Under the pieces are notes generated by a model. That model was not told the DNA's origin. It did not search any database and worked only from the letters and a program-made list of their open reading frames with translations. A DNA stretch of 62,482 nt, the filler included, from Kipferlia bialata (lineage: Eukaryota): the NCBI GenBank assembly GCA_003568945.1. It is 3 parts of 3 records of this genome, joined end to end, with 100 filler letters (N's around TTAATTAATTAA, not from the genome) between each part and the next. Parts side by side here need not be neighbours in the genome. Positions count along the whole stretch, not along the records: positions 27,695 to 55,275 come from BDIP01000167.1; 2 more parts are not named here. The stretch is one strand, 5' to 3'. Below, piece after piece: positions 12,106-58,107 of this stretch (its first letter is position 1; each line of letters opens with the position of its first letter). A program made the position numbers and the translations under genes.

Positions 12106-13973
12106 AGCCGTCTCTCCCCTCCCTCAGGCTTCAGGCTACCTTCCCAACGTGTTCTCTCTCTCTTTCTCATCCCAGGTTACAGGTGCCGCTCTCTCATGCG
12201 AGTATGTCAGCGACCCGGCAGAGCAGGCGACGCAGACCGCTGTGACGGGTATGTCTCTCTCTCTCAGTCTCTGGCTCTCGCCCCCCCCCCCCCCTCCCTC
12301 TCTTTGTCTGTCTCCTCTCTCTCCGCCACCTGTCTTCCCTTAGGTGTTCCCGACTTGGATGAGGGAATGTGGTATACGGAGAGCGCTGGAGAGATCAGTT
12401 TGAACTTCACAGACAAGGTGGGTTGATACTGATAGTAATTCCGATTACAAGTCTGGTATCCTGTCTGCTTCTTTCCCTATGTGCCCCCCCCCCCTCTCTC
12501 TCTCCTCTCCCCCTTCCCCACACTCCGCCATTCACTCCAGCCCTTCAATGTGATATGCCCTGGGGAGGTGACCTCCCTCCGCGTCGTCTGTGACGTAGAG
12601 GACGGGGTGAACACAGATGAGGAGAACGTGATGCTCTATCTATTGGAGGTGGGATTAGGACAGCATTCCTTGGATTATCCTTTCGTTATCATCGCTCCCT
12701 CCCTTCTGTCCGTCTCACGTCCTCCCCCCCCCTCTTACTCACATACCTCGCTCGATGCTGCCACGCGTTCCAACCCTTCCACCTTTGCCGACGCTGATGC
12801 ACTGACGTCGTCAGCGGAGAGGCAAGTGCTCTCACTCTTATTATCACTTCCCCTTGTTTCCTCTCACTCCCAGCGTTCTTATGTTCATGGTAGTGGCCAG
12901 TATGGATACGGTGGTGGAACTGGAGGTGAGGGTCTATCCAAAGGGAATTTTCTAGACTTGTGCCCCATGTATGCCCCCTACCTATGCTCTCTTCACTATA
13001 TATCCATCTCTCCCCTGGTTGGACTGGTGATCAGTGGATGCTTCCCATCTGTGACCTCTCTCTCCGCCACAGAGAACCCGCCCCCCCCTCCCACAGCCAC
13101 TCCATTACCATACACTCCTCTCACGTAAGAACGTGGACTCCTGCGTTGTCTTGAGAGGCTTCTACAGTGCAGGCGATGCCTCTGGTGAGTGATAGGTATC
13201 TCTATCGGATCTTGCATCACTTTTAGCCTCTACAAAACTGATACAAGTCTGCAATGGTATATATGTCTCTGTTGACTAATCATTGACAGACAGTACAACC
13301 TATATCAATATCAATTAGAACAGGTATATCTTACACCTCCACACTGTTACACTCTCTTTCGCTCAACACCATGTGGATGTATATATATAGTAGTATGAAT
13401 ATGTATCTATGTAGGTTCGTACCCCTGACCCTACTGACCCAGGCATGTCCTGCTCCTATATATATAGATACATATATATATATATGCATGTTATATAACC
13501 TTGTACTATACTGACCCAGGTATGTCCTGCTCCTATGCCCCTGTGTCAGAGGGGCCAGAGGACGGCAACGAGGAGGACCCCGAGGACGGTAGCGGTATTG
13601 ACCCAGGTACGGCCTGATCCTCCTCTCTCCTCCCTCTGTGTCTCTCTATCACTCGTCAAGGGGTACCCACCTTCGTCTGTACATACTCACAGTGACACTT
13701 ATGCTGTGTCTCTCTCTTCCTACGTTCACCCCCCCCCCCCACCCCAGTCGTCATTGGCATCGTGGCAGGTGTCGCTGTGGTGGTACTGGCAGTGGCAGCA
13801 TACTTCCTGCTCAGGTATTCCTCTCTCTCTCTCTCCTCCTCCAGTGGAGGACCTCCACCCTATCATTATCTCTCCTTCTTACTCACGTGACTTAGGTCCA
13901 AGGAACCTAAGGCCACCCCTGTCGAGTTCATGGCCCATGTCGGTGCCCCAGTTCTCATGGTACTATGAGAGTA

Positions 13974-20412: not shown

Positions 20413-23400
20413 ATGACTGATGGTAACTCCTAGAGTGGCTGTGTGATAGTGTTGATGTGCAATGTGTTGACACCACCTGATGGTGTGACACATCCTTCTA
20501 GTACGTTCACTGCCTGAGTGGTGAATATGCCCCCCCCCCCCCCATAACTCCAGGAGGCGTCCCTCTGCTACGTGTATCCTAGCAGTAGGTGCATAGGTGC
20601 ATGGTATCACCAGCCCCAGGGACCCCTGGCACCCAAAAGCTCTTGCAGGTATCCTTTATTCATGTCCCTTACCATAAGTCACCGTCTGCGTATGAGTACT
20701 GTCCTATATTCTCCCTCAATGATACACTAACTGTGCCAGGCCGAGAACACCCGGCTGAGAGATGAGCTCAGCATAGCCACCAACCACCTGGGGCAGCTCC
20801 TGGAAGCAGGTGGGTTAGGCCACCCTCTATGATTACGCATATGTACCCCCCCCCCCCTCTCCTCCTCCCCCCTCTCTGACTGATAGGCGCTGCCCCTGTG
20901 TCTGCTGCCGTTCTGTCTGACAATGCGTGTCTGAGGCAGAGGTGCATGCAGTTGGAAGGCATGCTCGAGTCAGCGGCAGAGGAGTACGGGGGCATGGTGG
21001 ACGGGGAGGTAGGGGCACAGTGACTGTGTGCGTGTACATCCCCACCTACTTACCTCAGGTCACATACGTACTTACCTTTACTATACTAACCTCAGGTCAC
21101 GTCCATGATGCGTGCCGCCCAGGTTGCTGTGGAAGGGGCAGGGCAGGAGAGAGACAGACAGGCAGTCCTCGTGGCACAGCTAGTCAGGTATAGTACATGA
21201 TAATCCATAACTCCTTGACCCCTTCCACTTCTATGACACCCGACTCTCTCTCTCTCTCTCTCTCTGACCCTCTAGGCAACGAGATGAGCTACAGGCCAGA
21301 TACACCCAGCTGGAGAGAGACTCTGAGGCAGCTGCCAAGGTGTACCAGGAGAGAGCGGCCTCTGCCTCTGCCTCCCTTGCTGAGACTGAGGCATCGACAG
21401 TGCCCGTGGAGGAGGTGGGGGGCACATAGAGAGTGTGTTATGTCAACCATGATCCGATATCCCTCCCCCCCTCTCATATGTCAGGTCAACACCCTTCTGG
21501 CCGAGCTGGATGGACTGCGGGCAGAGCGCACACGGCTTAGGTACACTGACTCAGACGCTGTCTCTCTCTCTTCAACTGCAACCCCCCATTCACCCCTAGT
21601 GTAGCTGCCGAGGATGCCTCCCTCGCTGTCTCTCTCTCTCTCACTCTGTCTGCTGCTTTCCTTCTCTTTACTTTTAGGATAGCTGCCGATGCGTCCCTTG
21701 CCTTGACCATCTCTCTCTCTCTCTCTCTCTCTCCCTCCGCCTTGACCCCAGGATAGCTGCCGATGCCTCCCACAGGGATATGGTCAGGGCACAGGCCGAG
21801 GGGCAGAACGCACAGGACGCCATGGAGACACTGAGGGGGAGGGTCGAGAGACAGGTGGGGGAGGAATAGAGGGGAGGTGTGGGTGTATCGATATGACCTC
21901 TCTCACGATAGGAGAAGGCCCTGTCCCGCGCCACCCGGAGGATGGACGGAGACGCAGCAAGGTATGAGTAGCGATGGTTAGTGACAGTGGGAAGGTACAC
22001 ACTCTCTGTATGCCTCTTCCTCCTAACTCCCAGGATATCCAGCCTTGAGGCAAGAGAGGCAGAGGTGCAGGCCAGGGAACAGGCACTGGCAGAGGGGGAG
22101 GCACAGAGGGAGAGAGAACTCCAGGCACTCAGGGCCAGGGTACAGGTCCAGCAGGTATAGTGCATGGTGTGAGGGATGGGTATGCGGCTCTCTGTGTCTT
22201 TGAGGTGAATTGTCGATAGTTGTGTATCTCCATACACCCCTTTGTATCACTGATACTGATGCCAGGCAAGGGATGCCAAGGGGGATGCTGAGAGAGAGAG
22301 GGACGTCGTTGTGGCACTGGAGAGGATGGAGGGGCTCCTGAGCACCACTCGGTATGGGATGACTATCCATATACCTGCATACTTACCCATGCCTCCTCAC
22401 CCCCTAGCACCCGTCATGCCGCACAGACCCTGGCCCTCACCCAGGAGGCAGGGGTGCTCAGGAAGGCACTCGCAGAGGTGGGGGCTTCACATGCATTGTG
22501 GTATTCATTCCAATCTATACGTATTCGCTTCTCTTACACTACATTATGTGTATTACTACGTGTCTAGATAACTCCCCTCACCCTCAGGCCAAGGCTGAGA
22601 TTGGAGCTCTCTCTGTCACCAGAGACTCTCTGTTGTCGAGGAGTAGGTTGGTGTATTACTTGGCACTCGTATCGTGGTTTCATTTGTCTCGCATTATTCT
22701 TCTCTTCCTGTTTCGACTTTCTCATCCATAGGGTTTTACATGGAGAGAGGATGGCTGAGAGAGAGAGAGTCGAGGGAGAGAGGGAGAGAGAGAGGGAAGG
22801 AAGAGTCAGAGAGACAGAGAGAGCAGACGCACTCGAAGTGGAGCTGATAGGTATTCTGCATGTACTGTTCCATATATAGTTGTGTGTTTGGTGTTGCTGT
22901 ATCTGGTCGTGACATAGATTCTCTGAGGGTGTATGCATTGGTGAGTGTCTCTTGCACGGTCACCACTGCCTCACCCCCAGGCTACAAGGAGAGGGAGCTG
23001 GAGCTGACCAACACCATCGAGGCCATCGCTGCCCCAGACAGAGAGGCAGAGATTGGGAGGCTGGCACAGCTGCTGGAGAGAGAGAGACAGGCCAGGGAGG
23101 ACGACAGGGCTGAGGCAAAGTATGACAGGTACTGGGGCAGCTGTTCTTAATGTCTATTTCCCTACAGTACCCTCTATAAGCTAGATACCGTATTGACTTA
23201 GCCTAACTGTAGGGATGAGCTGTCACAGCACCTAGCTGATGCTGAGAGGCGGTGCGACTCCTACATAGAGTCCATGGATGCCCTGGAGGCCGAGAGAGAC
23301 ATTCTGGTGGACCAGGTTAGTACAGACTGACCCCCACTCTCCTAATCTCTCTCACCCCCCAGGTAGCTTGTCTCGAGCTGTCTCTCTCCCGGTCGGCGTG

Positions 23401-26400
23401 TGAGTGTGGCACTGCACAGGCACAGGCAGCACAGGCAGAGGGGGCCCTGGGGGTCGCTAGGTGGGTTGCATGTTTGTATGTATCCAACATATGAATTGTA
23501 AGTGTTGTGATATTGTGCATGTACCTCCCACTCCTCCTCACCCCCAGGGCTGAGACAGAGAGTGCCCTGGCAGACATGGATGCTCAGAGGGCAAGGTACG
23601 ATGGGTCGCATGTGTCAGTGTCTCCTCAAGCACTTGTCCTACCCTTATGCCCCCACCCCCATACCATCACTTACCCACAGACATGCCAGTGAGCGTGATG
23701 CCTGGAGGGACTCCGAGGACCAGTATGTACTGGCAGCCTCGGTCACAAAGGTACAGGGTTTCGCTATGTATACACAGTGCACTATAGATGCTCCCTTCCC
23801 CATGTCCGCTGTCTCCCTTTTGTGTCTCCCCTCTTACCCCCAGGCCCAGCTGAGCAATGCCGCAGCAGAGAGAGAGAGGCTGGTACAGGAGAGAGACAGG
23901 TCTGCCTCTGAGGTTGACAGACTGTCATCCGAGGGGGCACAGCTCAGACAGCAGCTGTACACAGCACAGGAGGAGGCGAGGTGGGGTATACACCTGTATA
24001 CATGTTCATCTATCAGTAAGTGGTTATGTGTATTTCTTTACCACTTCGAAATTTTTCTGTCTGACCCCAGGGAGAGTGCGGCCACCCTTGAGCGTGTCTC
24101 CCTGTCCCACACCCACTCCGAGGCAGACATGGCCCAGCAGATACAGACACTAGAGGCACAGGTGGGGTCAAGCCATAGATATACAAATGTATATATATAT
24201 ATAGAGAGAGAGGGATACAGACACTCGAGGTACAGGTGGGGTCATACCACTGCTATATGTACTGAGTGCACACATTTGCTATGCATGCCTTCTGACTCCA
24301 GGTTGCCTCCCTGACTGAGCACAACGACTGTCTCTACCTGTCGTGTGCTGACAGGCTGAGCGATGCCCACGAGATGTGTGCTCTCGAGAGGGACAGCCTG
24401 AGGCAGAGGGTGGGTAGGCACGAGGCAGAGGCCAAGACACAGAGGGAGAGGGCAGACACGCTGGAGGCAGAGGTGGGTGGAGAGATGTACATGTGTAGTT
24501 CTGCTCTTGACTGTGCACTCACCCCTAGGTCTCTGCCCTCCGTCTGTCTGCCAGGGTCAGTGCCGCCTCCGATGCCCTCAGGACTGACTGTGTAGCCATG
24601 AGGGGGGTCATAGAGGGACTCAGGGAGGAGAGGTGGGTATTCACGATATAGTTACATGTCATTTGTACAGTATCATCGTCTCACCCCTCAGAGACGCTCT
24701 GCTTGTCCGTGTGGAGCAGGGGGAGAGTGTGGTGAGGAGACAGAGCGAGGCCGCGCTGACCTCTCTGAGGGAGGAGGGGGAGAGGGAGAGAGAGAGGCTG
24801 AGGGTGGATGCTGAGGCTGCCGTGGCTAGAGAGAAGGCTGTGTGTGCCGAGGTCAGCCAGACACTCAAGGGACAGGTACGATTCTATGTACTAGTAGTGT
24901 TTTTGTGTAAATGGTTTATCCTTCTATTCTTTCATGTTGTCTTACCCCAGGTTGCTGCTAGAGATGCGGAGCTGGTGCTACTGAGACAGAAGCAGGCTGA
25001 GGCAGAGAAGGTGAGGGGGAGCTAGATATGGTGACTGTGACGATGGCTATATGTGGACTGTGTATATATGCTCCTATAGAGTCCCCCAGTCTCTTACCCC
25101 TAGGCCCTAGCTACTCTGAAGAGAGAGACTGTGACTGAGAGAGAGAGGGACACCAAGGCGAGGGACCAGGAGAGAAACGAGCAGAAGGAGGAGGCGCGGT
25201 TTATGAAGGCTGCTGCCGCTCTGTCCTATGCATGCCTTGACCAGGTTGGTCTCTTTCCCTCTCTCTCTCTCTGTACAGAAGTATAACCCCCCTAACCCCC
25301 CCCCCCCACTGACCCCCCAGACCTCCCTGCGTCTGGAGTCTCTGCTGTCCCAGGCCAGAGAGGTGGAGCAGATAAGGGAGGGAGAGAGACAGGCACAGGA
25401 GGAGAGACAGGCACAGCACAAGGTGGGGGGCACTCATGTGTATGGGTGTGATACTGCAACCATTCTTCTCACTCTTCAGGCTGCTATGCAGGGTCTGTCC
25501 AATAAGGGTCCAGCCCATGCCAAGGTGGCAGATCTTGAGAAGCAGGTATTGCAAGAGTGGGAGAGATATGTATATGTGACTGGTGCGACCTTGCCCTGAC
25601 TCTTACACCCAGCTGAAGCTGCTCCACAAGAACAACCAGAGGCTGCAGAACCAGGTCTTGTCTCTAAGGTGGGTCCAGTTATTGCGTAACTCCAACAAGG
25701 GCAACACTAGTCCCCCTCACTTCAGGCATACCAAGCAGGCTGCCCCAGGTACTCTGCCTACCCCCACCCCTGCCGCTGCACCAGCTGTGGCCAAGGCTAC
25801 CCCAGTCAAGGCCCCTACTGCTATAGCCAAGGGCAAGGTTGTGCCCACACAGCCCCCTACTGGCAAGGCTAGTGCACTCAGACCCCAGGTGCCAGGCTCA
25901 GCTGCCAAGGCCACCCCTTCTAGTGTGCCAGGCATGACTAAGGGTATAGCTAAGGGTGTGACTAAGGGCAAGGGGGCCGCCATAGCCAAGCCCACCCCCA
26001 AGGCACAGAAGGGGACTGCCCAGCTGGGGAAGGGGGCAGGGAAGAGGCCTGCCAATGCACCCCAGACTGTCAAGCAGGTACCTACACATATACCCTACTG
26101 CTCTGCTCCAATGATACTCACTCCACTCACCCCTAGGTTGTGCAGGCCCTGGTACCAGGCATGGGTAAGGCCCCCACCCCCATGTCTCAGAAGGGCGTGC
26201 AGGGGAAGGGGAAGGCACAGACACAGGCTCAGAGGCCTGTCAAGAAGACCTCTGCCCCTGCGGCCAAGAAGGGTGCAGCACCTAAGCAGGCCGTGGTACC
26301 CGGCAAGAGACCAGCATCACAGGTCAGGGGCTGACTCCTTATCTATCCATATATCTCTGTTCGTGGTGCGAGGTGTCTCACCTCTTCCTCATCTCCTCAC

Positions 26401-27594: not shown

Positions 27595-27694
27595 NNNNNN
27601 NNNNNNNNNNNNNNNNNNNNNNNNNNNNNNNNNNNNNNTTAATTAATTAANNNNNNNNNNNNNNNNNNNNNNNNNNNNNNNNNNNNNNNNNNNN
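27595..27694. other. Assembly gap containing an artificial TTAATTAATTAA spacer
   Basis: 100-nt N block with a central six-frame-stop linker. An identical construct occurs at 55276-55375. Confidence 0.9.
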
Positions 27695-28257: not shown

Positions 28258-28716
28258 CCTCGGATAGGTGGGGTTGTAGATGTGTCAACAGGGTGTGGGG
28301 GGGATGACGGGCAAGCTAAACAGCCTCTTCAGGCACTGCTTGCTCAGCTCTGCTTTCCAACATGTATGTTTTTGGGGTCACCCCAACCCCCAGATTCGTG
28401 CCTGCAACCCCAGAAATCGGCCACTCATACTCTCACTTCCCTGCAGCTAAAGAGAGGTCATATTCTGGTTCACCAATCAAAAACACACTTGCACCCTTTT
28501 TAGGCAGTGTCGTTATCTGACTTTGAGACCGAGTGTCTCTCTACCCATACACTCCTCGGAGTCTGTATACACACACAACCCACCTCACACACTATATAGC
28601 TAGATCCGCATAGTGCTGCTGACCTAGCATTGGGTATTTTGCCCTGATACGGTTGTTGTGACCCAGTACACTGTTGCCCTCCATATACTAGAGAGAGAGA
28701 GAGAGAGAGAGGTGCC

Positions 28717-29294
28717 ATGCTGAGTGGTTCCAGTGTGCAGAAGGACTACGCTCGGTTCAAGGCCTCCCTGGCCACACAGCCTGTAAGGGTGTCCCTGTAC
28801 AAGCTGCTAGTGGCCACACACTCCTTTGTCAGGTTTGACAAGGTGAGGGTTATGTTGAGTTATATATAGCTAGGGATACAATTATTCTTCAACTGCGTAC
28901 AATCGCGCTATGTGAGCATTATGTACCGTTACTGATGGGAGTGGGCGCTCTCCCCCCCCTATCTCTCGACTGTACATTCCGTGTATACACGCTACACTCT
29001 CTCCCCTCCCCTCTCCCCCCCCCAGCCCATCTCTAAGTCGCTCACTCTCTCTCTCTCTAATAGGGAGAGATATTCCATGTATATACTCCCCTCTCACCCC
29101 CCAGACCTTCCCCCACAGGACTGCCTCCACTAATTCTCTCTCTATTTAACAGTCATTCCATGTATATAGTCTGACTCCCAGACCTTCCCCCACAAGACTG
29201 CCTCTGCTGAGTCTGGTGTGCACACCAGAGACTCCCTGTATATGCTGTCATTCAGACCATTCCTGGATGTGGCAAAGGCACAGGTATGTGTATA

Positions 29295-29328
<34 letters not shown>

Positions 29329-30855
29329 CATTGGCTCAGTAACTATTGTATATGCATGCTGTCATTCAGACCATTCCTCGGTGTGGCAAAGGCACAGGTA
29401 TATATATATATATATATATATTGTGAGGACCTGCAGTTCGTGTTCTCAAACACATGACTGTCTGTGGAGTCCTCACTATGTATACGTATATAGATGTGGC
29501 AAAGACCCAGGTACAGTTAGTGTATATATAGTACTGTCTTGCCAGCAGTCTCCCATACTCCTATATTGTATACTTGCTAACCCAGGGCCGCCTCCCCTCC
29601 CACGAGCACTACTTCATAACTATTACTATATATGTATATATAGCTTAGGTGATATATGATTAGGTTCTCCCTTGTATACATGTTTACATACTTACCCCAG
29701 GGCCTCCTCCCCTCCCACGAGCACTACTTCCTTGCCCCATCCTCCTTCCCCCTCCTCCCTGCCCCACCCCTCGGGGTCAGGGACGTGCCCCACCTGGCAC
29801 CACTCCCTCCCGGTATGTATATGAATATAATATGTATATATACATATATGTTTATATATACATATACATTTGAAGGTGAGGGACGTGCCCCACCTGGCAC
29901 CCCTGCCACCTGGTACACGCACATATATATATACCTTCACTATGTTTATTAATACTAATATATATATTTATATATATATATGAAGGTGAGGGACGTGCCC
30001 CACCTGCCACCTGGTATGCATTGGTCTCTCTCTGTTTGTCTCTCTCTCTTGTATAATAATACATAATTGTTTAGGGTTTTCTCGTCCCTTGTCAGTCTCC
30101 CGCGGATACTTCCCCCCCTCCATCTCTCTCTGACCCCTAGGATTCGAGAGCCAGAAGGGAGATCGCTATCTGGAGGTAGGTCATGTGTATGTATACTGCC
30201 CATCATTGGGTGCACAGTCTCAGTCACTGCGTCTAGGGCGTTCCCTCCTCTCTCTCTGTATCATCCTCTCTCTCTATACTTTCATATACCTGTAATGTAT
30301 CTATCCCTGTATGTCTATACCTGTACTGACCCCTCAGTTTGTGGAGCACCTGGTGGACATCCTGGACCAGATAGTGCACTGCACAGGTATGATGGCACAC
30401 TCATCCACTTGTGACCAATACTATATACGACTTGTGTATAGTATTGGGAGTATTCAGATATATCCACCCCCAGGTCTGTTCTACGGGATGGAGATTGGTG
30501 CACTCTCATATACACAGTTGTCTCTACATGTGTGTAAAGGCATACATCTATGTTTATACCATCCCACTCCAGGTCTGTTCTACGGCATGGAGATGGGTGA
30601 CAGTGTCACTCTAACGAGACTGGAGGATGACACACCGGATAGGGACCCAGGTATATAGATACATATATATATAGTAAGCGTTGGTATTTGATATTTGGGA
30701 CCCAGGTATATATATGTATTTATAGATATTGAATACATTTGCCCATGTATCTATGACCCTAACTGTCAGGCCACTCCGACCGCATTGAGGTCACGACCGA
30801 GTGGATCTGTGCCCACATTGTGCAATGCCTATCCCTAGCCTTATCACCTGCTAGG

Positions 30856-30902
<47 letters not shown>

Positions 30903-33900
30903 GGTATATACTATGCATGTATATATGTGTCTGTGCCCACATTGTGCAGTGTCTGTCACTGGCCTTGTCCCCTGCTAGGTATGTATCAATATGTATATAT
31001 ATTGTATATACGGTATATACTATGTATATATGTGTCTGTGCCCACATTGTGCAGTGCCTATCACTGGCACTGTCACCTGCTAGGTATGTGTGTATGCGCT
31101 AGTTATGAGTATTCAATAACATATCTCTGTATTTTCTTTTCGACATATACACTCACATCCAGACTTGAGGCAGCCGGTGTCTCCTGGCCCACAGACAACC
31201 TTAGGACCAGTTCTGTCCCAGCCAGACTGCTGGAACTGGCCTCACTCCTGATGGACAGACCATCCTCCATAGCCAGGGGCATACTCGAGTGCATATCGAA
31301 GGTATGTGGATTGGTTTATGTACAGTATATGTAATGTATACTAGAGCAATGGGTATACTCACCCCAGGTCTTGATGGCCCGTCCCTCCCTGGTGACAGCG
31401 GTGTACAGGGCAGACCAGGTGGGGATATAGAGATATATGGAGCATACTATATATATATGTACATATCCATATTATAGCAGTGTACAGGGCAGAAAAGGTA
31501 AACAGTGGCATATTGAGATACATGTTTGTATATACACATATACGTATGCTTTGATATATATCATACTGTATACACCACTTACCCCAGGCCCCCCGCGGCA
31601 CCACCCTGTCCCACCTAGTGGACACCTGTGTCACACAGTGCAGACAAGGGACAGAGGGAGAGGGAGAGGGGGAGACAGGGCAGGGCATCAGTGGACAGGT
31701 GTTGGCCACGCTGATAGGCCTACTGGTACAGACAGGTGGGTGTAGTACATACCAATATATACAATTCTATATTGGTGACTGTACAGGCATTTCTTTTGAC
31801 ACTTATTCACCCCCAGCGTCTCTGAGCCAGTCCCTGGGTGGTGACACCTACGAGGGTGTGGGTGTGTTTGACCTATCCTCCATAGACGATGCGGCATTGA
31901 TAGAGGTAGTCAGTGATAGACTCAGGGCCAGTAGGGAGGAGAGGGAGAGGCAGGGGGAGACTGAGGGTGTTGTGGCTGAGACTGAGTGTACAGCGACTGA
32001 GGACTCCCACCCCACCCAGGCCTCTGTCTCTAGGGTGTCTGTGTCTATGTCTGTGTCAGAGGGAGGGTTGGTACCAACACACCCTGTCCCCACTGTGTCA
32101 CTCCCCTCATCTGCACCTGTGCCCCTGTCACAGACACCAGTCTGCCTCAGTAACGCACTCGCCATGCTGCTATACCAGGTATGGGTATAGATATACACTA
32201 TACCAAGTATACTATGTATATGTTTATGTATACTATACATGCAGCACTGACCCCAGGGCCTGCAGTCTCCCACCGCCCTAGGTGGCAGGGACCTGGACAC
32301 ATCCAGTCTAGTGGGTATCATGCAGTATGCAGAGGGGCTGGACGGGAGAGTAGTAGAGGGAGAGAGAGAGAAGAGGGAGAAGAGCTGGGTGGGCACCATT
32401 GCGAGTGTGCTCGCATCCATTGTACCTGTATCCACTTTCTCCCTCGCCTTTCTCTCCCCCTCTGCGCCCTCTGCCCCTCTCTCTCTCCTACCCGTGGGTG
32501 CCCTGTACAGAGACAGGCTCATACCTGACCTCGAGGCCCACCCCACCCTGTCCCACCTGTACACCACCACATGCCTCCAGATGAGTGTCGACAGGCTCCT
32601 GCTCTGCCCCTCTGACCCCATCGCACATGTCCTAGAGGTGGCACTCGCACACTCACCCAACGTGGACCTGAGGTTAGTGTCATCTATCGGACTCAATTAG
32701 TATATATATGCCTTAACGACCCTATCTGACCCCAGGCTACTGCTCCCCCTCCTGTCCCAGCCTGCCCCAGCCATGTGCTTTGTCAGGGTGCTGCTATACT
32801 CTGTGGGCAATGCACCGGACAGGACACCCTTCATGTCAGTCATAGTGCAGATGGCAGAGTTTGTCAAGCAGGTGAGTGTAAACATGCTTGATATATGACT
32901 CTGTATACAAGTATTAAGTGAGGTGTCACTTGTAATATTCTAGATGGCAGAGTTTGAAAGATGAAGCCAACGTGAATATGGTTGGTCACCTGAGTATTGC
33001 GTGGCCGGTGTGCTTTTAGAGTTTTAGGACATACTCCTTTTGACCATTATTCCCTGCTAGTGACCTTCTCTGCTAGAAGATGTATGCATTGAGAAATACC
33101 ATTTGTGTGTCATCTTAGTCTTGTCCTCACCCTCAGGCCCTTCTCCTAGCCTCCACTGACAGAAGTGAGGAGAGCACCCTAGACAAGGCGGTGTGGCTAC
33201 CAGAGACAACATCGGTAGAGACAGAGACAGAGGCTGAGACTGAGCGAGAGACTGAGACCCCCTCCCCACCCCCTGTCCCCTTCACCTTCACCACTGTTGT
33301 GGCCGGTGTGCTCAGTGTACTGTCACCCCTCCTGTCCAAGGAGCACACGCCGCAGTCAGCAGACATTGACATCAGGTATGAGTGACTTCACTGTAAATAT
33401 ATAGATATACATATATCCATTACAATATTGGGTTCCAAATATGTATATATATATAGTAATTGATCTTCTGACCCCAGGGATGTGCTTGATGTGGTTGGTG
33501 AGGCATTCACACTGTCACTGTCAGACCCGGAGAATGAGGTATATACGTGTACCGTACAGTATATGAGAGTGTCATTATATTGAATCTTATGTACACAGGC
33601 GCTACACTATGAATATTGTTATATAGTGTATGTTCATGTAATACAGACACCCCCAGATCCTGTCTGAGCGTAGGAAGATAGAGTGTGATATCAGTGTCTC
33701 TGTATGTATATAACACTGACCCCAGATCCTGTCTGAGAATGTCGGCCCCCTTGCCTCCCTCCTGGCCATAGCATCTAGCCACTCCAGACAGTGCATCACG
33801 GCACTGGTGATGGCACTCAGTGACACAGACCCGGACACAGGTATGTCTATATAACTAATATATAATGGTGTTTGCCTCTATATTCGTTATATGTTGTATA

Positions 33901-36900
33901 CACATCTCTTGTATGTCAGCACTGGTGGTGGCACTCAGTGACACAGACCCAGACACAGTTGGGGGTTAGTGTGTATATATAGTTTGTGTATGTCCATAGA
34001 TGGAGAGGTCTTGGTGTAGATTAATGTAATCCTTTACCATCAGACACCCCCGTGACCCCCACTTCCCGTCTCCTCATCACCCGGTCTCTGGCAGTGGCTC
34101 TCAGCCACTACAAGGTATACACACTATATCTTATATACCTCTAAGGATATGTTCATTTATATGTATGTGAGTACACGGTGTGTATTATTATGTCTCTGGC
34201 AGTGGCACTCAGTCACTACAAGGTATATATACTCCATTTAGGCTCTTTATTGTATACCCCAACCACTACCAGTTGGGTGTTGTATATGCATATGTATGTG
34301 TTACCAATCTTGGTCACTGGGAGTGGCTCTCAGTCACTGCAAGGTGGGTGTAGGTATTATACATGATGTATGTGGGATAATACTCTTACCCCTTACCCCC
34401 AGGGCCCCTTGAACATGACTGAGCGCGAGATATCTATCCTGTGCGCGCACTTCAGACCCAATGACCTGGACGAAGTATACGAGGGAGAGGGAGAGACAGA
34501 GGGAGAGGGTGCTGATGAGGTAGAGGCCCAGGATGTTGAGAGCCCCACTGCTGTTGAGGAGGAAGAGGAGGTTGAGAATCCAGAGACCCCAGGTGATGAG
34601 ACAGTAACTGAGGCTGCAACTGCTGTAGATGAGTCAGAGGTGGTTGAGGAAGAAGAGGCTGTGGGGACCCCTGGTTCAGTGGAGAGTGGTGATGAGAAGA
34701 AAGTGGTTGCTGTAGAGCCTGCTGATACCACCACAGTGCCTGTGGTTGAGACCGAGACGCAGAGGATCCCGGCACCCCCCTCCCCCGCTGAGGGTTCCCC
34801 CTCCACCCCCCCACCCCCGACTCCCCTCACCCCCACCCACCCCTTGCACTCCGACACCCTTAACGGAGTGGTGTGGCTGGCCATAGCTGCCCTGCTGAAG
34901 AAGGTGTCCCCTGCCACCTATGACTACAGGCAGATGATAGGGGCCACTGGTCTCCATGTACTTGTGGACATCCTCTTTGCCAATGACACTCTGACCGAGG
35001 AGTACACTGACTTCCTGTTACATAGGGCACTGTGCAGAGACAAGGAGGGGTCTCTACGCCTATGCCAGCCTGAGGCACTCTCCCTGCTACTCTTCGTGGC
35101 TGGGCAGAGACCAGACTCTATGGGACCAGGTGTCCTAGGGTACATTGTGCACAGTCTGTACAACCTGCTGGTGAGTGGGTGTGTGCCTGGCTCCATGACA
35201 GGTAGTGCCACACACGGGTATGCTGTGGACCCCTCAGCTGCAGGTGTCATGTGTGCATGTGTGTGCAGCCACCCACCCACACTCACTGCTCTCACTGGGT
35301 TACTGGTCTCTCTAGCCGACAACCCCACCCTGCTCTCTCTTGTGTCCAAGTGTGTGACACAGGTCGTGGCATCATTCACCGACGTGTCCCACTTCAACGT
35401 GTACATTGCATCTCTAGACACTGATGCTATGGGTGCTGTGGTGGGTATCATCAATGCACAGCTCAAGAGAACAGCACCGGGGGGGACTGCACATGTGGTG
35501 CCTCTGCTAGTGGGTGAGGACGCAGCCCTGTCACACACCGTGTACAACATACAGGTTAGTATGTGATATACCTATACTGTACTCTCCTACACTTCTCATC
35601 CTCACCCCAGGTACCCAGGCTGACCACCCCCCGCAAGAGTGGGGGTGTCGATGTGGTGCAGCTACCCCTCTACGTGGCCATGTGGGTGTGTGCCCTTCCC
35701 CCTGCCTCCTACACTGAGGGAGCATCCTCTCTCCTCCTATCCCTCAGGGGAGAGAACTATGAGACGTCGGTGTGGCTGAGGTACAGTGCCACCAAGGTGG
35801 CCCCACAGTCACTGACACCACCCCTAGCTAGGCCTTCTAGTCTAGTTGTCTGTGGGTACAAGAGCAACGGCATGACGCATGCCTATGAGTATGCCCTACC
35901 CATAGAACATGGCCAGTGGTCCCAGATATCAGTCTCACTCTCTGGACAGTGTGTAGTGTCTGTCGATGGGTCTGTACCCCTACTGCCCCTGACACCCCCT
36001 GCACTTGTGGGGTCACCCACCTCTGAGGGGTCTGAGGGCATGTCCCCTGCCACAGCACCCCCTAGTGGTGTAGCACCTGTCTCTGTGCCCCAGCTGGCCA
36101 TGGATCCAGAGGCCACGCTGAGGTAGAGTGCATATAGTATATATTAGTGGGATGCAAGTACTAATATTTTACATAGTAATACACCTACACTGGCTATGGA
36201 CCCCAGGGCAACACTGGGGTAGGGGGCTATGTATATATATATATCCATATAGCACTACTTGTATGGTACTGATACTACACTTAGGTGCAGTGATATACCA
36301 GTAATAGGGAATGGTAATCAGTATTAACAACCAGGATCCTGCCCCACATGCGCCCTGGGACCACATCCCCAGAGGCCATGCCCCATGCATCACCCACATC
36401 CACTGGTGACAGACAGGGTACTGACACCCCCCTCCCCCTTACACCCTTCTGTGGCATGGTGGGACCTGTCACAACGTCTACCAATGTGCACCTGGACCCA
36501 TCCATGCAGGTAAGGGCACCATATCTATATGTATATATATATGAATGTACTGAGGAACACTATACTACCACTTGAATATACATACATCCACCAATGTGCA
36601 CCTGGACCCATCGATGCAGGTACCGGGATCTCTTTCTCTCCCTCCACATGTTATACGATTCTTCTCCTGACCCAGACATGTACCATGTATCTATATGCAT
36701 CTGTGTTCCCACCCTGACCCCCAGGCCACCCAGCAACAGGTGCTGCAGGCCATAGCCAAGGAGGCAAAGAGGGGGAGGTGCGGTTGCAAACCTATATTGT
36801 ATTGCGTTATATATATCACTACTAGGAGGCAAAGAGGGGGAGGTCGGCACATGAATATACAGTTGTGTAGATTTCTTTTATAAGTGTGGACATACATATC

Positions 36901-37188
36901 ACTGCAAGGAGGCAAAGAGAGGGGGAGGTGCGGATATATAGATTCACTATTATACATTGGTATGCATGGTATATGCCATTCTAATGTATATTATGTCTTT
37001 GCGATATTTACCCTTAGGGCCAGCCGTGGGTCTGTGACCTACCCCAGTGGTGTCTCCTTCCAGCTCCAGATAGGCACCGTGGGACTCATGTCCCCAGACG
37101 AGAGTGTCAATGCAACGTGTAGGCTCATGGTGCCCATAGTCGGTGGGGCCAGGTGAGAGATACATATATATATATATATCATATATAT

Positions 37189-37254
<66 letters not shown>

Positions 37255-39944
37255 CAGACACATGGTGCCCACAGTCGGTGGGGCCAGGTGAGAGATACAT
37301 GCGTATATGTATAGACACATGTTAGTATGGGTGGGGGCTAGGATATTACACTCGATGTTTTCGGTGCTGTACTATACTCTCGTTCCATCATCAATCAATT
37401 GTGTATACCTAACAACCAGACCCAAGAAGAGAGGCCCACCATCCCCGGCCCGTGTGGTATCCACACACGCAGTCCATCCGTCACCCGCACTCAGGTATGT
37501 GCATAACTTACTATCTTCTTCGCTATAGGCATGCATTATTACCCCGGGGTCGTGTTTACCCCAGGGTGATGCTGCAGTGGGATGGCAACACATTGTATAT
37601 GATGTACTCTATATACTATTAATATGTTTACTATACTATACTGTATATATATACACATCTCACCCCAGGGTGATGCTGCAGTGGGCCGTGTCCGTGGGCA
37701 TAGCAGCAGACGTGGCACACACACCCTCTCTCTCCACAGGGGGGTCTAGAGGCAAGGCCCTAGCCTCCCTCCCAGCCTCAGTTTCCACCCTACTTAGGGG
37801 GTCTACACCCCTAACCAACACCCTTCGCACACTGTCGCGTACACCCGGTGCTCTACCACCCCTGGCTGCCCAGCTCTTCCTGCTCTCCCTACCTCCCCTT
37901 GCCCACACTGAGACTGAACTGGCCTCTCTTCTCAAGGGGATAGATGCCATGCCACCCTCACCTGTTGTGGACATACAGAGACTGTCCCTGTCGGTGCCAT
38001 ATGCAGAGAGAGTCAGGGAGCTCATGAAGGCTGTGTTGTTAGGGGTTAAGGTACGTAATTATATCTCTATGCACTATTATGTATGGATGTGTTACCTTAG
38101 GACCCTGTTTGTGCCGATGTCACCAAATCTTTCTCTCTCTCTCGTTCTCTCTCTCTATGTCTCATACCTACACAGTGTATGCCTTACTTCCAGGACCCCC
38201 TTGCTGCCGATGCCACCCTCAAGGTGTGTGTGCACTGCATGACAGACGGGGTCGGGGCACAGCTCAAGGGGCCAGGTAACAGTATCGTGTATATACATAC
38301 CGATATACATATATCGTAACTATTCAAAGTGTATATATTACATATTATGTATATCCACAGACGGGGTCGGGGCGCAGCTCAAGGGGCCAGGTGGGATGTA
38401 TATTGAATTGTCTATGTCTCATACATGTGGAGCATGAAGATACCCATATGTGTGACTCTGTGACCTCTCTCCATGTTCTGCCCCCCCCGCCCCCCCCTCA
38501 CCCCCAGCCAAGGAGTCTTGACTACCCTACTACATCTATACTGTATATGGTACTGGAGATATGTCTCACGCTACCCATCTCTTCCTCTCACCCCCAGCCA
38601 AGGAGTCCATACTGTATATATACTACATATATATTTATACTACATATATATATATTCTATATCTACCCACCAAACCCCTCACCTCCCAGCCAAGGAGTCC
38701 CCCATGTGGGATGCCCTGTGTGCACTCATAGCAAGGTAAGTTACAATTACAGGATCTGTAGTATATGAGCACTAATTGCAAAGTGAGGGGGGTGGTGTCA
38801 GTGTGCCGGTACCAGTTCAGTAATGTGTATAGGACCATGTACACTTTGACACTCATACGCAGGTCTGGCACCCTTGCCTCCGCCCTCAACTGTCTAGTCA
38901 TGTAGAATGAGTGTATATATATATATATATATAGGTATATATTTGACACTCTCATTCAGGTCTGGGACCCTAGCCTCTGCCCTCAACTGTCTTGTGCTCC
39001 TGTCACCCCCACCCGTGTCAGTCATCCCATTCTGCAGACCCACAGTGCCCACAGGTATAAACTTATATACGTATATACATATATATATACGTGTGCCCAC
39101 AGGTGGGTTACTGGTACATACGTAGGCCATAATTGTACAGGGTCTAATATATGATAATATGTGCCCTCACTCTACTCCACATCCCTCAGGTCCTGTCTCT
39201 GATGACATCTCCAGTCTCTAAAGAGATATGACTCTCTTTGGATATTACTACCCTGACTATTGTTAATGCATCCCCTCCTCACCCCCCAGGCCCTGTCTCT
39301 GATGACCCCCGTACTGACAGTGACTCAGACCCTGCACCTTCCAGAGGCATACTGAGTGGGGTATTGAGGCTACTGACCACAGTCATACCCATAGTGTGTG
39401 ACGCAGTCAAGACAGAGTATGAGGTGGGGCATGTGTACAGTCATACCTCTCTATAAGTGCTATATTATCTTCTCTGGAGGCATTTGCTTCTGTATATATC
39501 TCTCTGCTAACCCCCAGAAGTCCTTTGGCGCTGCTGCCCTTGCCAAGTTCCAGCGCTCTCCCTCTCTGGTACAGGCTGTACTGGATGTCATCAGAACATC
39601 AAACTACATCCCATTCCTAGGTGGGTGTATATGTACTGGATGTCATCAGAACATCAAACTACATCCCATTCCTAGGTGGGTGTATATGTGTATATGATAT
39701 CCCTATATATATTAATATTCATTTGTGGTATGTAATTATGTACTGGATGTCATCAGAACATCAAACTACATCCCATTCCTAGGTATATGTGTAATATCAA
39801 TATGCATATATGTATGTGAGTTCAATATTGTGTCCTCACTCAGGTGTGTCAGGGTTTAGATGTCAGTATGTCATTCAGCAGTATATATTTACCGCAGGCT
39901 CTGCCCTTGTCTCCTCACCCTCTGTGTATATCTATACGTATACC

Positions 39945-46585: not shown

Positions 46586-48775
46586 ATGACGGTCCCTGGG
46601 GTCACTCCCAGGACATCCCATGTCAGGGTGCCCATATCCCTGAGGCCCAGGACAAAGGCACTCACGAGGGACACAGCCGTGCACACGTCCAAGATGAAGA
46701 TCCTGTGCAGGGTGAGACCCGAGCTGGATGGCGAGATGCTCCCCGGTCAGAAGGGCATCCTGGGGTGTGAGGAGGGGTCTGGCCGGATTGTCATCACGGA
46801 GCCGGACTCCATCGAGAAGAAGGGCGGGAGCGAGTCCTTCACGTTCACCCAGGTGCTGCAGCCCAGTGCTGACAATGCGCAGTGCTATGAGGCGGTGGCT
46901 GATGAGGCACAGAAGATGACAGAGGGTGAGTGTATGTATATACCACTGCAATACCCAATAACCCCCTATCCAAGTTTAAGCCTCACCACGTTCTGTATAG
47001 GGTATACTGATGGTATGTACACACCAGCTGTGTCCATACAATGGTGGTTGCATGTTATCTGTATGAATGGATTTTGATACCGGTACCGTTTGGCGGTCAC
47101 ATTATATGTGCACTATTACTCACAGTATATGCACTCATAGTTTTACTCAGCCCCTGCACTGCTTTTATATGTCCTACTGGTGCAGTATATGTTACTGGTG
47201 TGAGCTCTCTCTTGAATTTCCCAACCCACATCAAACTCTGGTACCAATCTTCATTGTCCCCACATACTATATGTCTGTATATGTCCTGCTTCCTTGCTGG
47301 TTCCCCATCTTTCCTTGAAGGACTCCCTTCCATCATTCTTCCCTCACCTCTCTCTCTCTCTCCCTCTCTTACTCTCTCTCATGCTTCTACTCCTTTCTCT
47401 CTCGTGCTCATGCTCAGATATCATTGATCATGCCCGCTTCTCTCTCTCTGTCCTCCCCCTCTCATTGTCAGGTGTCTCCCTGTCTGTCATGGCCTATGGC
47501 ATCACAGGGTCTGGCAAGACACACACCATACAGGTACACTCTGCTTGGCCATATGCATCTCTGACCCATAGATCCCACAATGGCACTTCTATACATGTAT
47601 TAATAATTGTTAACATATATATGTATTGTTATATGCCCCCCTCACCCCCAGGGCACCAAGAAGGACGAGGGTATCCTGCCCAGGCTGTTGGAGCACATAT
47701 TCAGCACAGTCAGGTGGATATAGTATGGGTATTGAGTGTAAGTTGGGTATCTCTAACAGTACATCCCCTCTCCTTATATGTCAGGTGGGGCCCAGGACAC
47801 GGTGACCCCCACACACCTACTAAGAGGACGCCTGGGGTCAGAACACCTAGCAGGACACCTAGGTGACACTACAATATGTTACATTCACCAACTACCTGTG
47901 TTTACCCCTTCCCTTATAGTATTCGTATCCACTGTTACCAACCCCAGGGCAGGTGGCAAGGTGGAGAGACGGGTCAGGATCAGTGTCCTAGAGCTCTACT
48001 GCAACTCATGCTACGACCTATTGGCTGATGTCCCAAAGTATGTCAGCTGCCTACACTGTAAGCGTGTTATACTCTATTGATGCTGAAGTTGTCGCTCTTC
48101 TTATCTGTCAGGAAGGCCATCAAGAACACAAGGACGGTGCATGAGGTGTATGGCGCCACAGACGGTACGGGTTTCTCTTTCCTTGTCTCTCTCTCTCTCT
48201 CTCTCCCTCTCTCCCTCCCTCCCTAACCCAGTTGGTGAGCAGGTTGCCTCTGCCAAGAGTGTCCTTGTCACGTCATACTCCAGCTGCATGAGGGTGTACA
48301 AGGTGCGGCTGCATAGTATAGTAGTGTGTCTATCCACACCCCACCCTCACCCCAGGCTGCCCTTAAGCGCAGGAGAGAGGGGGCCACCAGGTGGAACCTG
48401 CACTCATCCAGGTGGGCACAGGCTCTCTCTCTCTCTCTCTCTCAGTGTATATCCATATTTTTGTGTGTGTACCCCTCCCACCCCAGGTCCCACCTGGTCA
48501 CTAGAGTGAGTGTCATGGACACAGTCGTCAATGACAAGGTGAGGCACTGGTGCAGATTTATATGTGTATGTATATATGTGTACATCCGACAGAGTACCTC
48601 TCACTCTTTGCATCTCCAGTATTCCTCTCTCTCTCCTCACCCCAGGGCCATGAGACTGAGGTTCTCTTCTGCCGTGCCTCTCTGTTTGACCTGGCCGGAT
48701 CTGAGGAACACGACGCAGAGGCCACAGACAGGACCAACAAGGAGGTGGGGAGAGTGTATATGGACATATATATTA

Positions 48776-48814
<39 letters not shown>

Positions 48815-51800
48815 ACAGACAAATAAGGAGGTGGGTGGGGGGTATATATAGAGAGAGAGAGAGAGACAGAGAGGGAGAGAGATGCCACGGACATGTCCAA
48901 TACATAAGTGAGTTAACATCCGTACATATACTCTCTTTCCTCCCTTTCACCCCAGGGTTCCAAGATCCGCCTCTCCCTGCTGTCCTTGGGCAAGGTACTG
49001 GAACAGCTGAAGAGGGGGGAGAAGGGGAGACCCGTGTTCAGAGAGTCTCTGCTGACCCGTCTGCTCCAGCCCCACCTGTCGCCAGAGTCAAGTGAGTGAT
49101 GCATGCCTCTCTCCCTCTCTCTCTCTCTCCCTCTCCCTCCCTCACCCCAGAGATGGCCTCCACCTGCGTCATGTTCCTCAATGTGCACGGACACCCCAAG
49201 CACCACTCAAGCACAAAGGTGGGCAGGGGTATGGTGATATGCTATGTTATCAGTGTTGTATATTTGGTGTATTGTATATATGTATATACACCCACCCCCA
49301 GGCTGCCATGAAACTGGCCTCTGTGTCACAAGAGATCAGACTCAAGGGAACGGTGGCTAGGTGTGTTATAGATGTGTATTGGGATGGTTAGAGAGGCACC
49401 TTACTTTATCAATCCCCCCCCCACCCCTACCCACCCCAGGGTCACCTCTGTGAGGCCTGATGGATACCCAACCACAGCCAGAAGGACCAGGAGGGTGCCA
49501 GGTATGGGTGTATCTGTGGTGTAGTATATACATATACTCCCCCCACCCACCCCAGGCTCCCGTCTCCGCACTGGCAGGGCCTCTGTGCGTCGGTCTGCCT
49601 ATGTCAGTAGGAGGGAGAGAGAGATGGCAACGCCATCGCAGGTGGGATACCATACTCCTGTTTTGGGATTTCCATCTATTGTATTAATACACTTAACGCT
49701 GCAGTTGATAGTCCCTGAATAGTATCTATAAGAGTTATTCTGGATACTGGCATGAGTATGTAACAGTATATGTCTCACCCCAGCCCCAGCACCGCCTGGC
49801 TCTAGGGGGCATGACCCTCGACACAGAGGGGGAGGGCACTCCCTTCCAGGGGCCCGGGAGTCCTCTCCTGGACAACAAGATCAGGTGCGTACTTGGCTGA
49901 ATACTCGATATACTGTACTCAATCTATCCTTCCCTCCTTCTGTCTTTCTTTCCGTTTCTATCTCCCCCCCCCCTCTGACCCCCAGCCAGGCCTCTGAGGT
50001 GGCCAGGTCCAGACTGGCACACGGATACGGGCCAGGTACTGCACCGATACATATGCATAGACTGTGTTTACCTTCCTTCCTCACCCCCAGACGTGTCCCC
50101 TTCGGCCCCCCATGGCATGGACATAGATATGGATATGGACCCTGACAGCCAGATGGTGCAGATGACAGTGGGTGAGGGAACCATTCATTATATATATATA
50201 CATCGAATACCTGTGTATGTAGTGTGTATATATGTATGCACCCACCCCAGGTGAGCTCCGTACCATCCACACCCAGTTCCAGGACACCAGCAGACAGTGG
50301 CTGATGGACAGAGAGCGGAGGTGGGGTGTGCTATTCATAACTATGGGAATTGTGGAGTTTATTACTGGAATGAATTTCGGTGTATATTGCTGCATCGCTT
50401 ACACCCAGCGAGGAGGCCATTCGCAAGGAGATGTGTGAGCAGTTTGACGCATACATGACACAGGCCATGCACGAGGGTGGGTTATTTGTGTATTTATTTA
50501 TATACTTTTATATACAAATTAGTATCTATGTGTGTGTGTGTGTATTGAGAGAGAGAGGGGGAGTTATACATGGCAGAGGGTGTAGTTTGTATACATGTGT
50601 ATATATCCCCCCCCACCCCAGAGCAGGAGTACTCCGGGGCCATCATAGAGAACCTCAGGAAGGAGCTCTCGGACATGACCCTGCTGTACACTAAGGTATA
50701 GTAATACATAGAGAGAGGGTCAGTGGCGCGAATATATACAACGTCTCACACAGGCCGACCTCCACGAGACCCTAATGAGACAGGAGAGGGACAAGATGGC
50801 CAGCCAGGAGGTGGGTGGTGTATATGAATATGAGTGTATACATCTTTAGGAAGAGAGCGCTGAGTGAGTGGAGCACACTGGACAGTCAGTGTATGTGTAT
50901 ATTACAGAAGACCCCCATGTCCCTCCCCCCAGGCCACCCTGCGGCATGGCATGGACATACTGCAGCAGAGCGTGACATCTCTACAGGCGCAGCGGAGGGA
51001 GGTGGGGGACTGTGTGCTCATACATACAAATACATCCGTACATGAATTCTATCTCCCCTCTTATGCCAGACCCGGTCTGCCCTGTACACCACCGCCCAGG
51101 GCATGGAGACATGTGCAGACAGGGGGTGCGCACAGAAGGTATTGACACTCTGAATATGTGTGAGTAGTTCATCGAGTATTCAGAACCTTCAGCGTATGCA
51201 TTCACCTAGATACCCGTGTGTACCACTCTCCTCTCACCCCTCAGATATCTGCCCTGGAGATGTCCCTGACCCAGTTGAGGGAGGAGCTAGACACAGTGGA
51301 ACAGGAGAGACAGGCAGAGAGAGAGAGGGCGGAGGCAGAGGTCAGTGGGCATAGTCACTATGCAGCATAGTGAACCAATGGATATATACATATACCCAAT
51401 GTACCGTCTGGCTGTCTGTATCCGTTACATCCCTCTCTCTCTCTGCACCCTTATCCCTAGGCTGCCTCTGCCCTTATCCTCCACACCCAACAGATGGAGG
51501 AGCTGAAGGATGGCTACACATCACACATAGAGGTACAGGGTAGCCATGTACATTTATCTGAATGGGTGTGTACACTATTATTAGATATGCGTCTCACCGT
51601 CTAGACCCTTGAGAGAGAGTCCCAGGCAGAGAGAGAGAGAGCACTCGACGCCCAGGCACAGTATGAGGAGGCCCTGGTACGTCTCTCCCTCTTACTCTCC
51701 CTCTCTCTCCTCACACCCCTAATGTCAGGCCGAGCTAGAGAGAGAGCACGAGGCCGAGGTCGAGGAGCTCCAGACAGGGTATGATGAGGAGGTGGCAGAG

Positions 51801-54800: not shown

Positions 54801-54907
54801 CAGCAGCCCATATCGATAGGGAGAGTGAGAGTGAGGGGGAGGAGGAGGAGTCCCCTGAGGTGGTGGTCAGACCCAGGAGGCAGAGGCGGAGGGGGGTGCA
54901 CCACTAG
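46586..54907 (+). CDS. N-terminal-motor kinesin (kinesin-6-like, divergent) with long coiled-coil stalk and disordered S/T-P-rich tail
   Basis: KILCRVRP, FTFTQVL, P-loop MAYGITGSGKTHTIQ|GTKKDEGILPR, ISVLELYCNSCYDLL, switch I NLHSSR|SHLV, switch II LFDLAGSE and PVFRESLLTRLLQ. E/R-rich coiled-coil exons lie at about 50250-53780. Ends ...RRQRRRGVHH with TAG at 54905-54907. Confidence 0.92.
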
Positions 54908-55275: not shown

Positions 55276-55375
55276 NNNNNNNNNNNNNNNNNNNNNNNNN
55301 NNNNNNNNNNNNNNNNNNNTTAATTAATTAANNNNNNNNNNNNNNNNNNNNNNNNNNNNNNNNNNNNNNNNNNNN
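55276..55375. other. Assembly gap with artificial TTAATTAATTAA spacer; true size must exceed 100 nt
   Basis: It would have to hold most of a protease gene and the first CDK exons. Confidence 0.9.
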
Positions 55376-55450: not shown

Positions 55451-55695
55451 GTAGAGCCGTTGCTCTCAAGAGGATCAGACTAGAGTCCTCAGATGAGGTG
55501 TGTTCGCAAACATTTTTATATATGTGTGTGTGTATTCCTTACATACACATATCATAGACTATAATAATACATACTTCTATGTATATACTGAACATCCACA
55601 CATGTGTTGATATATACTCGAGGTCTCTCATGACGTCTCTCTCTCTCTCTCTCTCTATACCCCCTTCTGTTCACCCCCAGGGTGTCCCATCCACA

Positions 55696-55732
<37 letters not shown>

Positions 55733-55804
55733 ACCCTTTTCTCACCCCCAGGGTGTCCCATCCACAGCCATCAGGGAGATTGCACTGCTCAAGGTATGGA
55801 TGTG

Positions 55805-55850
<46 letters not shown>

Positions 55851-56269: not shown

Positions 56270-56304
<35 letters not shown>

Positions 56305-57959: not shown

Positions 57960-57996
<37 letters not shown>

Positions 57997-58055: not shown

Positions 58056-58107
<52 letters not shown>

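Follow-up and report, generated by a model that had tools for sequence, protein, structure and literature searches.

Copies of exon edges with an excess of silent changes in the introns of Kipferlia bialata, a variant of mirage repeats

The window we analysed, a stretch of 62,482 nucleotides from the Kipferlia bialata genome with filler included, contains two genes whose introns carry copies of their own exon edges. The first, KIPB_001220 (28717 to 43393, plus strand), has 39 exons encoding 2451 amino acids, and 31 exon-edge copies were found in 21 of its 38 introns. Our hand-curated 39-exon model is identical letter for letter to the database protein from Kipferlia bialata, GIQ80421.1, which a profile-free search brought up and which equals the model without the copies. 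The copies mislead gene finders, and the initial KIPB_001220 model had eight false exons. The protein has no Pfam match, and one of its exons resembles a LamG/concanavalin A domain by language-model features (score 0.95, 128 shared), which we treat as a lead only. No homologs were found among longer proteins, the protein cluster has one member, and a search of representative proteins returned KIPB_001220 itself and two repeat-driven matches.

The second gene lies on the next scaffold (55451 to 61969, plus strand) and was modelled with 15 exons, its 5′ end being missing. From the PSTAIRE, HRDLKPQN and DFG motifs in its open frame we take it to be a CDK-like kinase. Here 23 hits were obtained in 12 of the 14 introns, and 21 of the hits were kept as putative copies. 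A putative GC donor lies at 60426. A kinesin gene on the same scaffold as KIPB_001220 has copies in none of its 39 introns. For these intron counts the Fisher P is 7e-9, the CDK and kinesin models resting on open frames and motifs rather than on reads. The other genes in the window gave just a few cases.

To find the copies, each exon edge was aligned to its own introns, with the cut-off set at a level that 0.7% of unrelated pairs reach. Two of the 54 hits were dropped, one lying across an N gap and one mid-exon, leaving a strict count of 52 copies (1492 nt). The repeats are 14–49 nt long, with one to three copies per intron, and 42 of the 54 hits extend exactly to the splice site, most of the others ending within 4 nt of it. 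Donor copies always lie downstream of the working site and acceptor copies always upstream, so that the outermost sites are those contiguous with whole exons. Introns with copies are longer in KIPB_001220 (median 251 against 82 nt). TA density does not separate its copy-bearing introns from its copy-free introns (0.263 and 0.265, respectively), and in the kinesin gene it is 0.192.

The clearest array is in intron 7 of KIPB_001220, where all features lie on the plus strand. The last 47–49 nt of exon 7 (30770 to 30854) form copy 1, which the RNA contig and the gene model identify as the working version. Intron 7 (30855 to 31162, 308 nt) runs from this outermost donor to a single acceptor, and is followed by exon 8 (31163 to 31301), both seen in the RNA contig. 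The intron opens with spacer 1 (30855 to 30929), which contains the working GT donor and a 32-nt AT run, followed by copy 2 of the exon end (30932 to 30978), spacer 2 (30979 to 31034) and copy 3 (31037 to 31083). The innermost complete GT-AG segment (31084 to 31162) is 79 nt long, a normal intron size, and is not homologous to spacers 1 or 2; splicing of this segment on its own was not seen. All three versions of the 47-nt exon end (copy 1 occupying 30808 to 30854) encode CAHIVQCLSLALSPA and the first two bases of a split Arg codon, with GT next in each, and their homology begins 2 nt earlier, at 30806 (49 nt). The original prediction had described three versions of one peptide, the two copies being preceded by sequence with no acceptor AG, and both parts were borne out. 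Scanning spacers 1 and 2 gave no AG in either, and spacers do not end in acceptor remnants. Mutually exclusive duplicated exons are whole exons, each with its own acceptor and donor; the copies here are partial and their spacers contain no AG.

Copies 1 and 2 differ at seven positions, copies 1 and 3 at six and copies 2 and 3 at five, and every difference is silent. Eight of the nine variable sites are at codon position 3, the ninth being position 1 of a Leu codon, and all of them fall within eight consecutive codons (QCLSLALS), with the five codons upstream and two downstream invariant. Synonymous sites make up 27–34% of the 47-nt stretch. Under a model of one working exon and two neutral relics, nine silent changes out of nine have a P of ~1e-4 to 6e-4, and five silent out of five copy-private changes a P of 0.0015–0.005, both values being taken before choice of array and ignoring that intron 7 is the most extreme of ~10 multi-copy arrays. 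After allowing for ten arrays the P for nine out of nine is still <0.01, and chance does not account for a pattern in which every change is silent. Copies 2 and 3 share exact matches of up to 35 nt. With three sequences a two-state site can only split 2:1, and all nine sites are accounted for by a star tree (4, 3 and 2 private changes), so these versions are neutral on whether copy 3 is a recombinant, as had been suggested. Spacers 1 and 2 are homologous; their 55 aligned nt include 3 substitutions, and there are indels besides. Copies 1 and 2, by contrast, differ at 7 of the ~15 sites where a change would be silent (Fisher P 3e-4 to 7e-4). Divergence of the neutral spacers is thus lower than silent-site divergence, which indicates that the repeat unit is younger than the exon parts it contains.

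Two sequencing runs bear on whether these copies exist in DNA and in mRNA. The DNA run (X1) contains 98% of the sampled 31-letter words from 28700–38600, and it may be the source data of the window assembly, hence not independent of it. One of its contigs (depth 400) covers 30922–31051, running between the lead-ins of copies 2 and 3, and a second (depth 454) covers 31027–32400, both with no mismatch or gap. Among the contigs listed over 29900–32400 the others mostly have depths of ~310–500. The copy 2 and copy 3 contigs match the rest of the run in depth, and so are full-depth rather than one-allele contigs. This supports the earlier claim that the copies are not ordinary alleles. The link from copy 1 through spacer 1 to copy 2 is provided by the window assembly, as the DNA contigs listed skip 30849–30910. 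No differing letters were seen in DNA or RNA contigs over 29900–32400, with the proviso that contigs drop variants.

The second run (X2) is presumed to be RNA, as supported by a contig that skips GT-AG introns. This contig (depth 127) covers exons 6–11. It matches 30767–30848 with 0 differences and resumes at 31161, with four record letters between, and it shows normal splicing of introns 6–11 of KIPB_001220. It begins at 30570 and likewise leaves out the acceptor copy of intron 5. The run gives no cover in bins over 30908–31159, which is weak evidence alone; the joining contig is the evidence. Codons of copy 2 or copy 3 had been proposed as something to look for in mRNA; the contig carries those of copy 1 alone, though contigs drop rare variants and a small minority of copy 2 or copy 3 mRNA could escape. 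Use of an inner donor in intron 7 would shift the frame and reach a stop. The intronic copies 2 and 3 are therefore shown to be real DNA in tandem, with the outermost splice sites used.

A silent excess is also found beyond intron 7. The 52 copies contain 63 silent and 32 replacement changes (pN/pS ~0.2), where a working exon with a neutral relic would give a silent share of 0.40–0.48 (P 3e-7 to 2e-4); copies within one array are non-independent, so pooled P values such as these are too small. The excess is weaker when the intron 7 locus is left out, with 50 silent to 32 replacement changes (P 1e-4 to 0.009), or 35 to 25 if just the nearest copies are taken (P 0.003–0.05). For acceptor-side copies alone the P is 0.03–0.1. 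Within arrays, changes private to the exon number 8 silent and 0 replacement. Those private to a copy number 13 silent and 8 replacement, against an expected silent share of 0.27–0.33 (P 0.0008–0.006), or 8 to 8 without intron 7 (P 0.04–0.12). All six changes common to subsets of versions are silent. Intron 7 had been called the cleanest locus, which holds, but it is also the extreme case, as other copies carry replacement changes, stop codons and frameshifts.

The splice sites of the copies are also largely retained. GT is kept in 27 of 30 donor copies and AG in 19 of 20 acceptor copies, far above what decay at the flank-divergence rate would leave, and the copy splice motifs score equal to the working sites (0.95 against 0.77, and 3.3 against 3.9). 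The bases beside the splice site match at 2.8 of 6 and 7.3 of 12 positions, where unrelated introns give 2.0 and 5.5. Five copies are identical over 25–44 nt, yet their flanks diverge no more than a few bases from the splice site. Across the copies, common sequence beyond the splice site is mostly 2–5 nt. The spacers have a median length of 77 nt, compared with 82.5 nt for introns, and one of the 52 is shorter than 46 nt. Adjacent spacers are homologous in 10 of 52 pairs, in the top 5% of the null from other introns; at intron 7 spacers 1 and 2 are homologous, whereas spacer 2 and the innermost core are not. An acceptor tail of the (CT)n-TACACCCTTAT type is present in 5 of the 14 CDK introns, none of the 38 in KIPB_001220 and 1 of the 39 in the kinesin gene. 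Beyond this tail and low-complexity matches, no source of the spacers was found in the window.

The array predicted in intron 10 of the CDK gene (59599 to 60027, plus strand) consists of an exon end and three candidate copies, and its silent sites appear incompatible with one tree. Site 59616 groups the exon with copy 1, and sites 59631 and 59634 group the exon with copy 3. The four versions thus fail the four-gamete test, by one site against two, a result that recurrent mutation could also produce.

Plain duplication followed by decay does not fit the combination of a silent excess, splice sites kept beside unlike flanks, and exon parts older than their spacers. We favour the hypothesis that the intronic copies derive from other alleles that once worked, and that misaligned recombination captured fragments of these, a reading we consider evenly balanced between right and wrong. 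Repair of a break within or beside a TA-rich intron would involve a template switch that re-enters the exon 15–50 nt inside, giving a first copy. When divergent alleles then pair, the only sequence alike enough to align may be the edge of the exon together with its GT or AG. The copy could pair with the working exon edge of the other allele, and a crossover there would add a unit, while conversion would overwrite the copy with codons, splice site and intron flank from the other allele. Until its capture, each version would have been under purifying selection as a coding exon, so silent differences would come first and replacements later. At intron 7, one duplication and then one unequal exchange within the 19 identical bases at the repeat start could yield the three versions. 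The donor alleles would since have been lost from the strain, which looks uniform at the locus.

Several features of the species are consistent with allele capture. K. bialata is apparently diploid by k-mers, according to sections of PMC5874029. Passages of PMC8516963 describe metamonads as without NHEJ, and fornicates as having lost Rad51A, with two Dmc1 paralogs present. Dmc1 is portrayed as a mismatch-tolerant recombinase in extracts of PMC8682777 and PMC7809202, and in a hypervariable fungus crossovers between divergent genomes take place in exons, with introns avoided, as stated in parts of PMC4209137. Counting against allele capture, sex is unobserved in metamonads in the sections of PMC8516963 concerned. 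Mixed sister and allele templates predict some overdispersion, so the finding of none in the silent counts among copies (P 0.2–0.5) also counts against it. The five identical copies with unlike flanks mean that it assumes allelic introns that turn over much faster than silent sites. A protein scan of metagenome contigs for a donor allele or relative gave 182 pattern matches and 0 confirmed, and a scan of such contigs with a degenerate DNA pattern for the repeated peptide found no match. Allele capture leaves the copy-free kinesin gene on the scaffold of KIPB_001220 unexplained.

The main rival is that the copies are old duplicates made in place which serve as standby exon edges, and which conversion or deletion on the same chromosome brings into frame. 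Replacements would then be selected against while the spacers drift. This would explain the kept exon part and GT or AG beside drifting spacers, the copy-private silent excess and the four-gamete failure, needs no hyperdiverse population, and could use single-strand annealing, which is predicted to be available in passages of PMC8516963. Against it, the repeats are just 14–49 nt long, and a deletion rate high enough for selection to act would probably erase the copies before the spacers diverge. In addition, 32 replacement changes, stop codons and frameshifts persist, and no contracted form appears among the joints listed, from contigs that drop rare forms. We give this explanation a modest chance of being right. 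A related proposal, to which we assign a rather small chance, is that Dmc1-only, NHEJ-less repair swaps the standby edges into frame, with selection keeping code and splice sites, introns being replaced and exons acting as the sole pairing anchors.

It is also conceivable that the copies are ordinary mirages, plain tandem duplications in neutral decay, with intron 7 a lucky extreme and slippage scrambling the TA-rich spacers. A perfect young 55-nt tandem unit in intron 29 is what such an origin would leave, as are the ten homologous spacer pairs and the many copies with replacement changes, and the silent excess is modest once intron 7 is excluded. However, the replacement divergence of 0.03 predicts that ~5.6 of 6 and 11.3 of 12 bases beside the splice sites should match, well above those observed, and the nine silent changes out of nine at intron 7 remain improbable after allowing for ten arrays. 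We therefore consider plain decay unlikely. Capture of a foreign intron strikes us as equally doubtful. Here a broken exon end would prime on another intron through AG|GT or CAG|G, copy about one intron length and re-enter its own exon a few dozen bases inside, and the outer working site would be the new one. The spacers do have the size and character of introns and for the most part show no relation to the adjoining segment, the common sequence past the splice site is short, and the CDK acceptor tail looks as if intron ends had been copied within the gene. But intron capture gives no silent excess by itself, and the window offers no spacer source beyond low-complexity matches and that tail. 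It could thus be the first step of allele capture, not the whole.

Use of the copies at the RNA level, by codon switching or by stepwise splicing with a copy's last AG as acceptor, seems very improbable. Although AG is the last dinucleotide in 28 of 30 donor copies and the splice motifs are intact, 37 of the 38 KIPB_001220 exons end in AG anyway, the RNA contig carries copy 1 only, and inner donors shift the frame. Copy ends score −5.1 as acceptors, against 5.6 for true acceptors, with no gain over exon ends, and an initial GT is seen in only 4 of the 19 exons that have acceptor copies; recursive splicing through the copy's AG was rejected on these grounds. An assembly artefact, with alleles stacked in tandem through TA repeats, is hardly credible: the genome is a short-read draft of a probably diploid species (sections of PMC5874029), the copy 1–spacer 1 link falls outside the contigs listed and the DNA run may be source data, but the depths of 400 for the contig between the copy lead-ins and 454 for the unique flank would be roughly halved in allele-specific sequence, and the reads contain the intron-to-mid-exon junction and nearly all sampled words of the region. 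Two further candidates were set aside. Error-prone resynthesis with selection was rejected by reasoning, as it needs ~15% errors and the changes seen are of all types, and an extant paralog as donor is unlikely, one contig of depth 454 being found over 31076–31327 at 85% likeness.

About 50 copies at donors and acceptors in two genes provide a countable record, in one genome, of intron turnover, in which each event preserves the exon edge and splice site of an earlier or different gene version. Should the copies be captured alleles, a single strain would archive the silent diversity of its population, and exchange between homologs would have taken place in a group without observed sex. The copies also pose a splicing puzzle. 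Inner donors and acceptors are skipped though they score like the outer ones, and the innermost GT-AG segment often has the size of a normal intron; the spliceosome is reduced, at 87 of 174 proteins in the portion of PMC6679479 concerned.

Unexpressed partial coding copies near an expressed site are also known from silent-cassette conversion (trypanosome VSG, Borrelia vlsE) and from pointer-guided unscrambling in ciliates. Such systems are programmed or alter the protein, whereas the three versions at intron 7 specify one and the same peptide, and the one RNA contig, from which rare variants are dropped, gave no sign of switching.

Intron gain by tandem genomic duplication, the Rogers model, likewise starts from a short intragenic duplication with AG/GT proto-splice sites, as set out in parts of PMC4974935 and PMC3443670, but there a new intron results, whereas in Kipferlia the copy sits within an intron already present and makes it longer. 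Exon-biased crossing-over in Schizophyllum commune offers exchange between divergent alleles within conserved exons, as allele capture needs. The crossovers there are equal and boundary repeats go unreported in the relevant sections of PMC4209137, whereas for Kipferlia allele diversity is an assumption.

The closest likeness is to the mirages of amphioxus (Adh3, the globins BflGb6/BflGb9, troponin C and PGBD5), described in passages of PMC3087553 and PMC3902484 as tandem repeats that span the boundary on the donor or acceptor side, carry GT or AG and leave the spliced mRNA undisturbed. Unequal crossing-over is proposed for them in the same passages, and their units are 10–160 nt, compared with 55–220 nt in Kipferlia. 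The Kipferlia copies are likewise direct repeats across the exon–intron boundary that include the splice signal, and they are intronic with normal mRNA, as the RNA contig demonstrates for introns 6–11 of KIPB_001220. In contrast to the long arrays of the mirages in those passages, most introns of the gene are hit, with one to three copies each. Head-to-tail minisatellite units are homologous through the intron part, as in BflGb6, where units are 81–100% identical in the text consulted, while here this holds for 10 of 52 pairs. The intron part is non-homologous in the other 42, and the absence of whole-unit homology makes the Kipferlia repeats a variant of the mirage. The silent-site excess is a further difference, the word 'synonymous' occurring 0 times in the portion of PMC3087553 searched. 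The openly available articles searched gave no report of boundary repeats in Kipferlia or protists, and 'duplicat' occurs 0 times in the searched portion of the K. bialata genome paper (PMC5874029). By our searches this is the first protist case of mirage-like repeats. We conclude that exon-edge copies are real and reproducible across two genes, those of the CDK gene being predicted from its sequence, and that they represent a variant of the amphioxus mirages rather than a plain member of that class.

Within KIPB_001220 (28717-43393, plus strand), the array at the end of exon 29, that is the working exon edge together with its intronic copies, occupies 39577-39782 and holds three occurrences of the edge, the three versions being identical at 44/44 nt. 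Its first unit is a perfect tandem duplication of 55 nt and represents the youngest state among the arrays seen. The intron 3 array (29775-30017) carries five silent changes, of which four fall in successive codons of the exon end, and its second copy has a 9-nt deletion that keeps the frame.

The kinesin gene on the same scaffold (46586-54907, 40 exons in the gene model built here) served as the control for the boundary-copy scan. No boundary copies above threshold, a score passed by 0.7% of unrelated pairs, were found in this gene, and one decayed trace lies near 48808. Single boundary copies also occur on the first scaffold, in two further genes, at 13380-13533, 21676-21771 and 24140-24257.

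In our model of the CDK-like kinase gene (55451-61969), intron 11 has GC (60426-60427) as its working donor, whereas the intronic copy of this donor, within 60554-60597, has GT. An AG at 60555-60556 lies directly ahead of this copy, and the AG and GT would bound a candidate in-frame cassette exon of 39 nt. An acceptor tail of the (CT)n-TACACCCTTAT type, located at 55730, 56735, 57700, 57996, 58107, 58482 and 59535, recurs in 5 of the 14 introns of this gene, as if intron ends had been copied within it; KIPB_001220 has such a tail in none of its 38 introns and the kinesin gene in 1 of 39.

The three scaffolds of the window are joined by two linkers (27595-27694 and 55276-55375), in which N runs flank a 12-nt word with stops in all frames; additional N gaps lie at 3626-4487 and 56792-57677. 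The latter is flanked on either side by the same exon start (56751 and 57716), a doubling that is possibly an artefact of the gap.

Language-model features gave exon 20 of KIPB_001220 (35611-36122) a likeness to LamG/concanavalin A-like domains. Together with a long helical remainder, this exon may be reminiscent of the N-termini of the BEACH family.
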